A stretch of 64,000 nt of DNA from Escherichia coli (GTDB lineage: Bacteria > Pseudomonadota > Gammaproteobacteria > Enterobacterales > Enterobacteriaceae). Positions 53,201-59,200 of the stretch are shown here, piece by piece. Each line of letters opens with the position of its first letter. Positions within the stretch are counted from its first letter, which is position 1. Location of the stretch: the NCBI RefSeq assembly GCF_024502345.1, contig NZ_JALDNN010000001.1. The stretch is one strand, 5' to 3'. The position numbers are program-made.

Positions 53201-56200
53201 TTTGACCTTAATCATGTTTTTTGATAGATATTTTACGACTGAACATATCCGTCGTTTCCTCTGACTCGTGTCAGTCGGTCTCTGGTTGTATCCACGGACC
53301 GCACTCTTGACATAAGAGTGCGGTCCGTGGAAAACGGAGTTGAAAAAATGGTGTCTGAAAGAAGGTACCATCATTGTGATGACAAATACTTTGGCGTGGA
53401 TAATGTAATTAATTGCTGAAATTGACCGTATATGCGGTAAGACTCATATCAGTATCAGGTCCGGTTAATTGCTGATACTAATATAAACTTTTTACAAAAG
53501 GATGAATGCAGAAGGTTACTCTAATGGCCAGAGTGATGACAATGATGGTCAGACGTTGACCTGCAGAAACTGCATTTTAATTGGTCTATAAAGTCTGCAA
53601 GAGGAATCAGGGTCAGATCAGTGAGTCTTATCGCGGCCCGAAGCTATGACTGAAAGAAGGCTGGATACAGAATTGCAACAATTTGGCAATGTCAGAACAC
53701 AGAAGCTTTGCAAGCAGGTGAAAGGTTATGTCTAGCAAAAGGAGTATATCAGAATATATCTACTGATGTACAAAACACAACAATAGCTTCATGATATATA
53801 AATACGTGATGACGAGTGGTACTCCGCATGGTTATTTAACTTCTCAGCACCACTAATGATCCTGAGCAACTTCGTATTTGGGCCATTACCATGGAGTAGA
53901 AAGCTGTGTCTGAGAATGCAGAATTTGAGAAAAGAATTCGCTTTCTTGGAGAGCTTCTGAAAATGGCACGCTAACAACGTTTTGTTAAAAAATGTGAATC
54001 ACTTGCCGGGGTTGCATTTTCTATTCGAGGAGAATGTTGACGTAGATATTACAGAAATCTCAGCGCATCAGGATAAACTGCTACCTTAGGTCAACCACCA
54101 AAAGAAAATACAATACGTCCAGTTTGTATGCCTTTAATAACACATCTTCTAAATGTTGAAGAATTATCCCGCCTGCTGAAGAACGTTGCTCTGAGTGTGA
54201 TAAACCTTTTTATTCTTGATGATGTCAGCGAGAAGATGGAATATATCCCCGACTGGGTCGTGGTTACCCGGTTAAACATCTGGTGGCGCTAATAAATCTG
54301 GCAAGTCACATTCTGTTGAATGCTGTGACAGTGCCTTACCGAGAGAGCGAAATTGTGGTGTTCTAGTGCATAGTCGCCACCATTCCGGATAATTCTATTA
54401 CGTTGTTTTACAAGTTCTTTTACAGCGCAGATCTGTCGCTGACGTTGAATCAATAGCCTGGATTTCAGAACACAATGCCCGTTTGCTGGTTGTTCCGGCA
54501 GTAGCATTAATTCATTATCTGAATGAAATGTGTCAATCCACAGAAACCGCTGTCAATGACGCATTTTGTCGGACGTTAACACGAGAAAGTCTGGCTATTC
54601 CGTAATGCCATCTTATTTCGTAATGGATTGAGAATGCTGGATTTTTAATTATATTACGCGCAGTATTAATCGCGTAAATGTTTTGCGGTCAGCAACGGTG
54701 GGGGATCCATTGTTCTGTTCAATGAATACCATCATACATTTGAATCAGGAGTCGGTATGATGATTTTGGTGACGGGGGGCGCACGGAGCGGGAAGAGTCG
54801 CCACGCAGAGGCGCTTATTGGGGACTCTTCACAGGTTCTGTATATCGCTACCTCGCAAATCCTTGATGATGAGATGGCTGCACGGATAGAACATCATCGG
54901 CAAGGCCGCCCGGAGCACTGGCGCACAGTGGAGCGCTGGCAACATCTTGATGAATTAATTCATGCAGACATTAACCCGAATGAGGTTGTGTTGCTTGAAT
55001 GCGTTACCACAATGGTGACTAATCTGTTGTTTGATTATGGCGGCGATAAAGACCCTGATGAATGGGATTATCAGGCGATGGAACAGGCGATTAATGCTGA
55101 GATTCAGTCGTTGATTGCTGCCTGCCAACGTTGCCCCGCAAAGGTTGTATTAGTGACTAACGAAGTGGGAATGGGGATTGTGCCGGAGAGTCGTCTGGCA
55201 CGACATTTTCGTGATATTGCCGGGCGGGTAAATCAGCAGTTGGCCGCTGCGGCAAATGAAGTATGGCTGGTGGTTTCGGGTATTGGAGTAAAAATCAAAT
55301 GAGTAAATTATTTTGGGCGATGCTCTCATTTATTACGCGTCTGCCTGTACCGCGTCGCTGGTCCCAGGGACTGGATTTCGAGCATTATTCTCGCGGTATT
55401 ATTACTTTTCCTTTGATTGGATTATTGCTTGGCGCGATTAGCGGGCTGGTCTTCATGGTGCTGCAGGCATGGTGTGGCGCACCACTGGCGGCACTGTTTA
55501 GCGTACTTGTGCTGGTGCTGATGACCGGGGGATTCCATCTGGACGGCCTCGCTGATACCTGTGATGGCGTATTTTCTGCACGTAGCCGCGATCGCATGTT
55601 GGAAATCATGCGTGATAGCCGTTTAGGCACCCACGGCGGTCTGGCATTGATTTTTGTGGTACTGGCAAAGATTCTGGTGTTAAGCGAGTTGGCTCTGCGT
55701 GGCGAATCGATCCTTGCATCGCTGGCGGCAGCATGTGCGGTCAGCCGCGGGACTGACGCATTATTGATGTATCGTCATCGTTATGCGCGGGCAGAAGGGC
55801 TTGGCAATGTGTTCATTGGCAAAATTGATGGGCGACAAACCTGCGTCACACTCGGCTTAGCCGCTATTTTTGCTGCCGTATTATTGCCGGGTATGCATGG
55901 TGTGGCTGCTATGGTGGTGACGATGGTGGCGATTTTCATCCTCGGTCAGCTTCTCAAACGTACGCTGGGCGGGCAAACGGGCGATACGCTGGGAGCAGCC
56001 ATAGAGCTTGGTGAACTGGTCTTCCTGCTGGCACTGCTATAAAGAGACGTGAGATGCAAATACTTGCCGATTTACTGAATACGATCCCAGCCATCGATTC
56101 TACCGCTATGTCGCGTGCACAACGGCATATTGACGGGTTACTCAAACCTGTTGGTAGCCTGGGAAAGCTGGAGGTGCTTGCCATACAACTGGCAGGAATG

Positions 56201-59200
56201 CCGGGGTTGAATGGCATACCGCATGTGGGCAAAAAAGCGGTACTGGTTATGTGTGCCGATCACGGCGTCTGGGAGGAAGGGGTCGCTATTTCTCCAAAAG
56301 AAGTGACAGCCATACAGGCTGAAAATATGACCCGTGGAACAACCGGCGTGTGTGTGCTGGCAGAACAAGCGGGCGCTAACGTCCACGTAATTGATGTTGG
56401 TATTGATACTGCTGAGCCTATCCCCGGGCTTATCAACATGCGTGTCGCACGAGGTAGCGGCAATATTGCTTCAGCTCCGGCAATGAGTCGCCGTCAGGCT
56501 GAAAAGTTGCTTTTGGACGTCATATGTTATACGCAGGAGCTGGCAAAAAACGGTGTCACGCTGTTTGGTGTAGGTGAACTGGGGATGGCAAACACGACAC
56601 CGGCAGCAGCAATAGTCAGCACAATCACTGGCCGGGATCCTGAAGAAGTGGTTGGGATTGGCGCAAACCTGCCGACAGATAAACTGGCTAATAAAATTGA
56701 TGTTGTGCGTCGGGCGATTACGTTGAATCAACCAAATCCTCAGGATGGTGTTGATGTCCTGGCAAAAGTGGGTGGATTTGATTTGGTCGGAATAGCTGGA
56801 GTGATGTTAGGTGCTGCTTCCTGCGGTTTACCCGTGTTGCTGGATGGATTTCTTTCTTATGCTGCTGCGCTCGCAGCCTGCCAGATGTCTCCTGCAATCA
56901 AACCGTATCTCATTCCTTCTCACTTGTCGGCAGAAAAAGGCGCGCGTATAGCGCTCTCGCATTTGGGGCTGGAGCCTTATCTCAATATGGAGATGCGTTT
57001 AGGTGAGGGGAGTGGCGCAGCTCTGGCGATGCCCATCATCGAAGCTGCCTGTGCGATATACAACAACATGGGCGAACTTGCTGCCAGTAATATTGTTCTA
57101 CCGGGGAATACGACTTCTGATTTGAACAGTTAAAAACGAAAAGTCTGATAAAAGCTATACTTAACGGATAGCTTTCGCGACATAGGAAAGGGACATGATG
57201 CGTCGTGTAAATATTCTTTGCTCATTTGCTCTGCTTTTTGCCAGCCATACTAGCCTGGCGGTAACTTATCCATTACCTCCAGAGGGTAGCCGTTTAGTGG
57301 GGCAGTCGTTTACTGTAACTGTTCCTGATCACAATACCCAGCCGCTGGAGACTTTTGCCGCACAATACGGGCAAGGGTTAAGTAACATGCTGGAAGCGAA
57401 CCCGGGCGCTGATGTTTTTTTGCCGAAGTCTGGCTCGCAACTCACCATTCCGCAGCAACTGATTTTGCCCGACACTGTTCGTAAAGGGATTGTTGTTAAC
57501 GTCGCTGAGATGCGTCTTTATTACTACCCACCAGACAGTAATACTGTGGAAGTCTTTCCTATTGGTATCGGCCAGGCTGGGCGAGAAACCCCGCGTAACT
57601 GGGTGACTACCGTTGAACGTAAACAAGAAGCTCCAACCTGGACGCCAACGCCGAACACTCGGCGCGAATATGCGAAACGAGGGGAGAGTTTGCCCGCATT
57701 TGTTCCTGCGGGCCCCGATAATCCCATGGGGCTGTACGCGATTTATATTGGCAGGTTGTATGCCATCCATGGTACCAATGCCAATTTTGGTATTGGGCTC
57801 CGGGTAAGTCAGGGCTGTATTCGTCTGCGCAATGACGATATCAAATATCTGTTTGATAATGTTCCTGTTGGGACGCGTGTGCAAATTATCGACCAGCCAG
57901 TAAAATACACCACTGAACCAGATGGCTCGAACTGGCTGGAAGTTCATGAGCCGTTGTCGCGCAATCGTGCAGAATATGAGTCTGACCGAAAAGTGCCATT
58001 GCCGGTAACCCCATCTTTGCGGGCGTTTATCAACGGGCAAGAAGTTGATGTAAATCGCGCAAATGCTGCGTTGCAACGTCGATCGGGAATGCCTGTGCAA
58101 ATTAGTTCTGGTTCAAGACAGATGTTTTAAGAGCGTTGGTAATTAGAAAGCAAAAAGCCTGCTAGAAAGCAGGCTTTTTTGAATTTGGCTCCTCTGACTG
58201 GACTCGAACCAGTGACATACGGATTAACAGTCCGCCGTTCTACCGACTGAACTACAGAGGAATCGTGTGAACGGGGCGCATATTAATGGCAGTGCATGGT
58301 GATGTCAAAGGGTGAAATGCATTTTTTTGTTTGTTTGCTGTCAATTTCAACAAAGTGGTGAGCTTTCAATCTTATTGGGTAATGAACCATCGTGGTGCAT
58401 ACCCTCCTTTTATAGGGCAGGGGAACGCGACAGCTGATTAAAGGAGCAAATGACGAATCTATCATAATCTCTTATTTGACAGTTGGTTAGCTTGTACATC
58501 AACACCAAAATAAAACTGGCAAGCATCTTGCAATCTGGTTGTAAGTAATGGCGGCACTTGGGCCGATTCTTAAAAACCGGAGGCAACATGAACTTCAGAC
58601 GCCTGAAATACTTCGTAAAAATTGTAGATATTGGTAGCCTGACCCAGGCTGCTGAAGTATTGCATATCGCACAACCAGCGCTCAGCCAGCAGGTTGCCAC
58701 ACTGGAAGGTGAGTTAAATCAACAACTTTTGATTCGCACAAAACGGGGCGTTACGCCAACAGACGCCGGAAAAATTCTCTATACCCATGCGCGGGCCATT
58801 TTACGTCAGTGTGAACAGGCCCAACTGGCGGTGCATAACGTTGGTCAGGCATTATCGGGGCAAGTCTCGATTGGCTTTGCACCAGGAACCGCTGCGTCAT
58901 CCATCACCATGCCCTTATTACAGGCGGTTCGCGCTGAATTTCCGGAGATCGTTATCTATCTTCATGAAAATAGTGGTGCAGTGCTTAACGAAAAATTGAT
59001 AAATTACCAACTCGATATGGCGGTGATTTATGAGCATTCCCCTGTGGCTGGTGTATCCAGTCAGGCTTTGCTGAAAGAAGATCTTTTTCTGGTAGGAACT
59101 CAAGATTGCCCGGGGCAAAGTGTTGATGTGAATGCTATTGCGCAAATGAACCTCTTTCTCCCCAGTGATTACAGTGCTATTAGACTTCGTGTTGATGAGG

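Follow-up and report, generated by a model that had tools for sequence, protein, structure and literature searches.

The cobUST operon of Escherichia coli: very probably a native cobinamide-salvage operon retained beside the scar of a pdu-pocR-riboswitch deletion

What remains of cobalamin (B12) synthesis at a locus that carries three genes of the pathway, and how did these genes come to stand without the others? The question is raised by a stretch of 64,000 nucleotides of Escherichia coli DNA (contig NZ_JALDNN010000001.1 of assembly GCF_024502345.1), called the window here at its full length, in which cobU, cobS and cobT occupy positions 54757-57133. These genes make up the nucleotide-loop assembly branch of cobamide synthesis. 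A preliminary description of the window had found them alone, preceded by a decayed tract rather than by cbi genes, and had concluded that the locus supports cobinamide salvage but not de novo B12 synthesis. Our results bear this description out and refine it, as the decayed tract appears to be a scar that carries the 3΄ relic of pduV at one end and, at the other, the relic of an open reading frame (ORF) derived from the N-terminal domain of cbiG (hereafter the cbiG-N ORF). We propose that cobUST is very probably the native and functional E. coli operon, serving salvage only, and that it was retained in place after the deletion of pdu, pocR, a cobalamin riboswitch and the cbiG-N ORF.

The three ORFs lie on the + strand, exactly where they had first been placed; all are intact and score above the curated cut-offs. 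The product of cobU (54757-55302), a bifunctional adenosylcobinamide kinase / adenosylcobinamide-phosphate guanylyltransferase of 181 amino acids (aa), matched the NCBIfam model NF004469 with 248 bits (cut-off 161; profile positions 3-170 of 173) and the Pfam family CobU (PF02283) over its full length (1-168 of 168). That of cobS (55299-56042), an adenosylcobinamide-GDP ribazoletransferase (cobalamin 5΄-phosphate synthase) of 247 aa, reached 305.5 bits with the NCBIfam model TIGR00317 (cut-off 110; model positions 1-241 of 241) and also covered PF02654 completely (1-207 of 207). The start of cobS was taken to be at 55299; further upstream, at 55263, is another in-frame ATG, from which the gene is counted in the mechanical list of ORFs. 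The sequence ATGA at 55299-55302 is the overlap of the cobU stop with the cobS start. Eleven nt further downstream of cobS begins cobT (56054-57133), coding for a nicotinate-nucleotide--dimethylbenzimidazole phosphoribosyltransferase of 359 aa, with 391 bits in NCBIfam model TIGR03160 (cobT_DBIPRT; cut-off 319), 466 bits in NF000996 (cut-off 306) and a full-length match to Pfam DBI_PRT (PF02277). The close packing of the three genes is that of an operon. A gap of 61 nt separates cobT from ldtA (erfK; 57195-58130, + strand), a conserved right-hand neighbour that annotation and tblastn synteny also place in Salmonella and Citrobacter.

The alignment of CobU with the solved Salmonella enzyme (1c9k/1cbu; E 3e-98) spans the full protein, and the CobU P-loop GGARSGKS (residues 7-14) and histidines H46 and H47 are identical to those of the aligned chain 1c9k_A; histidine 46 is the residue that we take to be guanylylated in the Salmonella enzyme. 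CobT aligned with the solved Salmonella CobT (1jh8_A) over residues 1-352 (E 3e-178). CobU and CobT of the window do not differ from those of strains D2 and BL21 (100% identity), under accessions that are common to K-12 (WP_000973176.1 and WP_001166160.1, respectively), and CobS is 99% identical to that of D2, BL21 and K-12. From the identity of CobU to the D2/BL21 protein with a K-12 accession we infer that it would have both kinase and guanylyltransferase activity.

The cobUST genes are a conserved core operon under strong purifying selection, and not a relic. The 2,377-bp segment was found in 5,400 of 5,426 complete E. coli genomes (99.5%; presence counted at a coverage of at least 80% and an identity of at least 95%), and the ratio of nonsynonymous to synonymous substitution rates (dN/dS) across Escherichia species was 0.08-0.19 for cobU, 0.05 for cobS and 0.07-0.10 for cobT. 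These figures stand against the alternative that cobUST is itself decaying in the window lineage, silent or non-functional like the relics beside it. The window has indeed lost the upstream riboswitch and any distal promoter, and the operon is dispensable in some relatives, as E. albertii has a cobU pseudogene and a deleted cobT and the genome GCA_023277125.1 has none of the three genes. Yet all three ORFs are of full length with full-length model matches, CobU and CobT are the proteins of D2, BL21 and K-12, the dN/dS values of 0.05-0.19 go together with near-universal presence, and the proximal leader of 188 bp is kept in all locus types, which makes decay in the window lineage extremely unlikely.

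This leader (54569-54756, + strand), the last 188 bp before cobU, was present in every locus type examined, and it is nearly invariant among the window, the pdu-positive strain RM10740 and the E. coli strain BA22372, in which pduV΄ is joined to it directly, 188 bp upstream of cobU, at a different breakpoint. It contains a single sigma-70-like site (TTGAGA-16-TATATT, 54628-54655), and a predicted ribosome-binding site, AGGAG, stands ahead of the cobU ATG. A cobalamin riboswitch (RF00174) was found neither in positions 50000-60000 at E <= 1 nor in the whole window at the gathering score, and the window cobUST is not a riboswitch-controlled cob operon with an RF00174 leader. We infer that in the window lineage cobUST would be expressed from the proximal leader, free of riboswitch feedback.

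Is anything left of the genes for the corrin ring? Searches with NCBIfam and Pfam left the three nucleotide-loop genes as the only ones present. Proteins CbiD-CbiP of a metagenomic contig, where they are encoded in a cbi operon of enterobacterial type, detected no cbi gene when compared by tblastn with the whole 64-kb window; the best match (E = 0.006) was hisH (35590-36054), an expected consequence of the glutamine-amidotransferase paralogy with CbiP. The stretch covering the 3΄ part of cbiB and cbiC gave nothing below E = 0.06 by tblastx against the window. Among the 5,426 complete E. coli genomes, a probe of 8 kb of Salmonella cbiF-cbiP DNA produced no match to cbiM-cbiP and one match to cbiF-cbiK, 357 nt long and 66% identical, which falls on the N-terminal region of cbiG; it is annotated as 'hypothetical protein', corresponds to the cbiG-N ORF and is no cbi operon. 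The result fits what is recorded for the species: E. coli has been listed as 'de novo: no, salvage: yes' (PMC5282855), is the demonstrated example of a cobinamide salvager (PMC6461909) and has lost the cob-pdu cluster (PMC3158058). With no cbi genes, the corrin ring could not be built, and the intact cobU, cobS and cobT would serve salvage only, in agreement with the preliminary description.

It could be argued that cbi genes lie at another locus, for example in a horizontally acquired cbi-cob cluster of Klebsiella or Salmonella type, so that de novo synthesis would be possible and the cobUST-only appearance would be local. A case of this kind may exist in the draft genome of Escherichia sp. 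MOD1-EC7003, which has a native cobUST relic locus (L083) and a second contig, L030, of 10.9 kb, with Klebsiella-type cbiH-cbiP, cobU and cobT and no cobS. This contig of a draft assembly could be a cbi cluster that the Escherichia gained horizontally, or else contamination, and no cbi operon was detected with the Salmonella cbiF-cbiP DNA in any of the 5,426 complete E. coli genomes. We therefore give a second cbi locus hardly any probability.

In the salvage that we propose, imported cobinamide would be adenosylated by an enzyme encoded elsewhere, by analogy with the known pathway. CobU would phosphorylate adenosylcobinamide and then convert the product to adenosylcobinamide-GDP, while CobT would form alpha-ribazole phosphate from dimethylbenzimidazole and nicotinate mononucleotide. 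CobS, a membrane enzyme, would join adenosylcobinamide-GDP and alpha-ribazole phosphate into adenosylcobalamin 5΄-phosphate, and a phosphatase encoded elsewhere would complete the cofactor. No result speaks against the proposal of a functional operon for salvage only, but several points set bounds to it. The promoter scan of the leader returned one site when 4.1 were expected in shuffled sequences, so that there is no enrichment and the site is a positional lead only. The cbi queries covered CbiC-CbiP, among them CbiP as the paralogue of CbiA, and of cbiB only the 3΄ stretch, and the survey of complete genomes at the DNA level is blind to a cbi operon whose identity to that of Salmonella is below about 65%. 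The steps of the salvage are those of established Salmonella and E. coli biochemistry, the activity and expression of the window enzymes being predicted. Finally, the genes for corrinoid uptake, the adenosyltransferase and the phosphatase map outside the window in E. coli. Set beside the integrity and conservation of the three genes, these points leave native retention for salvage very probable.

How did cobUST come to stand alone? The upstream tract is, as far as its sequence can tell, a two-ended deletion scar of the form pduV΄ ... ΄cbiG-N ORF, and not a product of anonymous decay. Its left edge is a pduV relic (51312-51494, - strand), situated 100 bp from tmaR (yeeX), which comprises the last 60 codons of the gene (residues 88-147 of 147) and matches Pfam PduV-EutP (5.9e-13) over profile positions 86-142 of 143. 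Window positions 50700-51494 correspond to tmaR and the 3΄ end of pduV of RM10740 with 97.7% identity, and near-identical DNA of D2, BL21 and K-12 is annotated in RefSeq as an 'EutP/PduV' fragment beside tmaR. The right edge is the relic of the cbiG-N ORF (54462-54605, + strand), which holds the last 47 codons of the 145-aa ORF and, when aligned with the intact RM10740 allele, shows a 9-bp deletion and an earlier stop. The DNA from the right edge to cobU (54461-54756) is 91.5% identical by blastn to positions 9001-9305 of locus L003. At the position of this relic the Prokaryotic Genome Annotation Pipeline (PGAP) has marked, in D2, BL21 and K-12, a 144-nt pseudogene of a 'cobalamin biosynthesis protein' with its N-terminus missing, about 150 bp upstream of cobU. 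The 47-codon relic gave no family match in profile searches. An origin as the 3΄ end of cbiP, which in Salmonella is the gene next to cobU, was rejected, because the match of the intact allele to CbiG begins at the very first residue of the N-terminus; CbiP also gave no match in L003 or in the window.

In RM10740 the span between the two edges, from pduV codon 88 to about codon 99 of the ORF and including the riboswitch, amounts to about 17.5 kb. The window has in place of this pdu-pduF-pocR-riboswitch block a filler of about 3 kb (51495-54460; GC 34-43%), in which no similarity to PduA-E, PduF or PocR was found. The deletion would have run from inside pduV to inside the cbiG-N ORF, the debris of mobile elements now filling the gap, and would therefore have left cobUST with the proximal leader only and no riboswitch. 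The junction of the window type (at least 80% of window positions 54100-54800) occurs in 3,249 of the 5,426 complete E. coli genomes; a probe for the riboswitch and the 5΄ part of the ORF, again at 80% or more, is kept in 644 (about 12%), and some 200 E. coli genomes retain the cbiG-N ORF from codon 33 on. The site of the scar has been listed, under the name 'cobU', as one that carries a genomic island in strain CFT073 (PMC3155842).

The undeleted arrangement can be seen in pdu-positive Escherichia. In RM10740, tmaR is followed by pduV...pduA on the opposite strand, pduF, pocR, a cobalamin riboswitch, the 145-aa ORF and cobUST, and this layout is intact in E. marmotae, E. whittamii and 'E. coli E69' as well. 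A riboswitch of 105-113 bits followed by the cbiG-N ORF was found in RM10740, E. marmotae, E. whittamii, 'E. coli E69', E. albertii and GCA_023277125.1, and on either side of the intact RM10740 ORF no trace of cbiF, cbiA or cbiP was detected by tblastn. Since riboswitch and ORF are common to the Escherichia lineages examined, cbiA-cbiP appear to have been lost before these lineages diverged, with pdu, pocR and the riboswitch being kept. Two members of the group have gone further: in E. albertii (L089/L090, 4436-5877) cobU has broken up into a pseudogene, cobT has been deleted and cobS alone seems intact, and in GCA_023277125.1 (L088, 6471-6698) ldtA comes straight after the cbiG-N ORF, cobUST being absent. 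To judge from this decay and absence, cobinamide salvage would thus have been lost in some pdu-positive relatives.

A wider survey, in which the window CobU was used as query against one genome per species, returned 80 loci. In 51 of them 9-14 cbi genes precede cobU, the last one ending 3-6 bp before it (Citrobacter, Salmonella, Klebsiella, Kosakonia and others); cbiP is the only cbi gene in 14 (Raoultella, Yokenella, Franconibacter, Atlantibacter and others); and cbi genes are absent from 13, belonging to Kluyvera, Trabulsiella, Kosakonia cowanii and two Escherichia loci. Where Kluyvera, Trabulsiella and Kosakonia cowanii have no cbi, yeeA-tmaR stands directly before cobU. Outside Escherichia, the stand-alone and cbiP-only loci fall into a first group (L053, L055, L058, L059, L061, L067-L071 and L073) and a second one (L031, L033-L035, L037, L040, L047, L062, L072, L074-L077 and L085); together they suggest that the cob operon has been reduced several times, and to different degrees, in a single slot of the chromosome. 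On the other side of the operon, ldtA follows cobT in L010, L022 and L025 by tblastn synteny, an order that Salmonella and Citrobacter share with the window.

From these comparisons, a slot consisting of yeeA-tmaR, then pdu-pduF-pocR-riboswitch-cbi, then cobUST-ldtA would be common across the Enterobacteriaceae; in the Escherichia ancestor the cbi block would already have shrunk to a single ORF of about 145 aa that stems from the cbiG N-terminal domain, and the window lineage would have undergone the further deletion of about 17.5 kb. An early loss of cbi in place, followed in the window by a second deletion, supports retention of cobUST in situ over its separate acquisition. The opposing view would be that cobUST was acquired alone, as a salvage cassette, and does not descend from an ancestral cob operon at this site. 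Stand-alone cobUST does exist after yeeA-tmaR in Kluyvera, Trabulsiella and Kosakonia cowanii, and Lawrence and Roth reportedly made a case for the horizontal transfer of cob genes between enteric bacteria. However, the slot of cobUST, ahead of ldtA, is the same for Salmonella, Citrobacter and Escherichia, and upstream of cobUST the pdu-positive Escherichia have kept pdu, pduF, pocR, a full-scoring riboswitch and what remains of cbiG, arranged as in Salmonella. In addition, the window retains relics of both ends of that block, and the GC content of its cobUST genes (0.48-0.55) is not atypical in composition. We thus regard acquisition as a cassette as very unlikely, and retention of the native operon as the explanation to be preferred.

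The likeness to known systems can be stated in the same terms. K-12 has the same genes beside erfK/ldtA, in the same order and with the same overlaps, flanks and 47-codon cbiG-N relic as the window; K-12 differs in an IS5 insertion sequence (IS) at window position 54363-54366, an IS2 in the relic of a TonB-dependent receptor plug and a larger CP4-44 remnant with Ag43, insertions that are all missing from the window. In Salmonella enterica, cobUST is the distal end of cbiABCDETFGHJKLMNQOP-cobUST in the same slot, accompanied by pocR, pduF and pdu; then comes ldtA, as in the window, and the identities of the window proteins to those of Salmonella are 81% for CobU, 81% for CobS and 76-78% for CobT. 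The full cbiA-P set of Salmonella has been listed (PMC5282855); its cbi genes reach to 3-6 bp before cobU, with cbiE-cbiP seen in the flank, whereas the window has none. Salmonella makes B12 de novo under anaerobic conditions, while the window is devoid of cbi, riboswitch, pocR and pdu. Pdu-positive Escherichia (the RM10740/LF82 type, E. marmotae and E. whittamii) share the leader with the window, and the cobUST proteins of RM10740 are 97-98% identical to those of the window; in contrast, the window is without the approximately 17.5 kb that include the riboswitch, and its relics are the two ends of that layout. The presence of nucleotide-loop genes and absence of corrin-ring genes is the genotype of the cobinamide salvagers of Shelton et al. 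2019 (PMC6461909), a genome-wide category that is judged here on 64 kb.

What the cbiG-N ORF is, and whether it does anything where it is intact, is a further question that the right edge of the scar raises. The 145-aa ORF of RM10740 matched the CbiG model NF004463 over positions 1-125 of 351 (E 2e-19, 69.9 bits), and full-length CbiG found it by tblastn with E 4e-16. CbiG, the cobalt-precorrin-5A hydrolase, has N, middle and C domains in about 350 aa, and the model cut-off is 546, so even the intact ORF does not qualify as CbiG; the segment 54462-54605 of the window is no cbiG gene but the relic of an ORF derived from cbiG. The intact ORFs have 144-156 aa, contain the N-terminal domain of CbiG only, and lie downstream of pocR, about 218 bp behind the full-scoring cobalamin riboswitch. 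The corresponding stretches are at 8342-9172 in L003, 9050-9877 in L006, 9039-9866 in L008, 3608-4435 in both L089 and L091, and 5608-6471 in L088.

The ORF is open in six Escherichia-type lineages, with pairwise dN/dS of 0.28-0.68 versus 0.05-0.19 for cobUST; over the first 60 codons the values are mostly 0.16-0.36. About 4% of random substitutions in it would make a stop, and a rough estimate from pairwise differences gives some 300 substitutions over its tree. That it stayed open by chance therefore seems unlikely, a judgement resting on this rough estimate of substitutions. Furthermore, ORF and riboswitch persist in E. albertii with its cobU pseudogene and cobT deletion, and in GCA_023277125.1, which has no cobUST. 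A role as a mere translated leader for the expression of cobUST was also considered, and is weakened by this retention together with the riboswitch where cobUST is decayed or absent. In the adherent-invasive E. coli strain LF82 the ORF is annotated as 'CbiG' (LF82_328) and is transcribed (PMC4509574); our search of the literature found no study of the cbiG-N ORF itself. The relic in the window might be what is left of a gene that in other strains has stayed functional, with a B12-regulated role of its own, either in corrinoid handling or in the pdu/pocR circuit; we put this forward tentatively, holding it to be less than an even chance. If it were true, the window lineage, like most E. coli, would have lost both the cbiG-N gene and the riboswitch feedback on cobUST.

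The cobUST-only salvage state is already well known for E. coli, with K-12, BL21 and D2 carrying the same operon, and the window confirms a textbook genotype in which B12 would be finished from cobinamide without any building of the corrin ring; by itself this matters little. The operon does anchor the reading of the neighbouring relics, as the ends of a deleted pdu-pocR-riboswitch-cbiG΄ block with mobile-element debris between them, and a by-product of modest wider interest is that cbi would have been lost early in Escherichia, with pdu, pocR, the riboswitch and the cbiG-N ORF kept.

The debris can be followed through the filler. By the PGAP features of D2, whose DNA is 99.88% collinear, it begins with a transposase-domain relic (about 51557-51694) and a DUF957 relic (about 51983-52075); the PGAP annotation of D2 then gives two pieces of the CP4-44 prophage on the - strand, yeeW (52109-52303) and a cbtA fragment (about 52300-52425). 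The TonB-dependent receptor plug relic (52552-53112, - strand; Pfam Plug, 3e-25) is a continuous ORF of 186 codons in the window, is split by IS2 in K-12 and is truncated by an IS2 fragment in D2 and BL21. At 53291-53331, in AT-rich filler free of annotation, lies a perfect inverted repeat of 18 bp with a loop of 5 nt (TCCACGGACCGCACTCTT / AAGAGTGCGGTCCGTGGA). An IS4-family transposase fragment (54265-54453, + strand), annotated by PGAP in D2 and BL21 on 99.87% collinear DNA, abuts the cbiG-N relic.

In gene order, the window carries the colanic-acid and O-antigen clusters, then his, sbcB, dacD, sbmC, yeeA, tmaR (yeeX), cobUST, ldtA, tRNA-Asn, nac, cbl and yeeO. Three tRNA genes with identical scores are found around nac, cbl and yeeO, a short way downstream of cobUST-ldtA, at 58189-58261 (- strand), 60598-60670 (- strand) and 62419-62491 (+ strand), and the first of them is tRNA-Asn by the annotation at the matching position in related strains.

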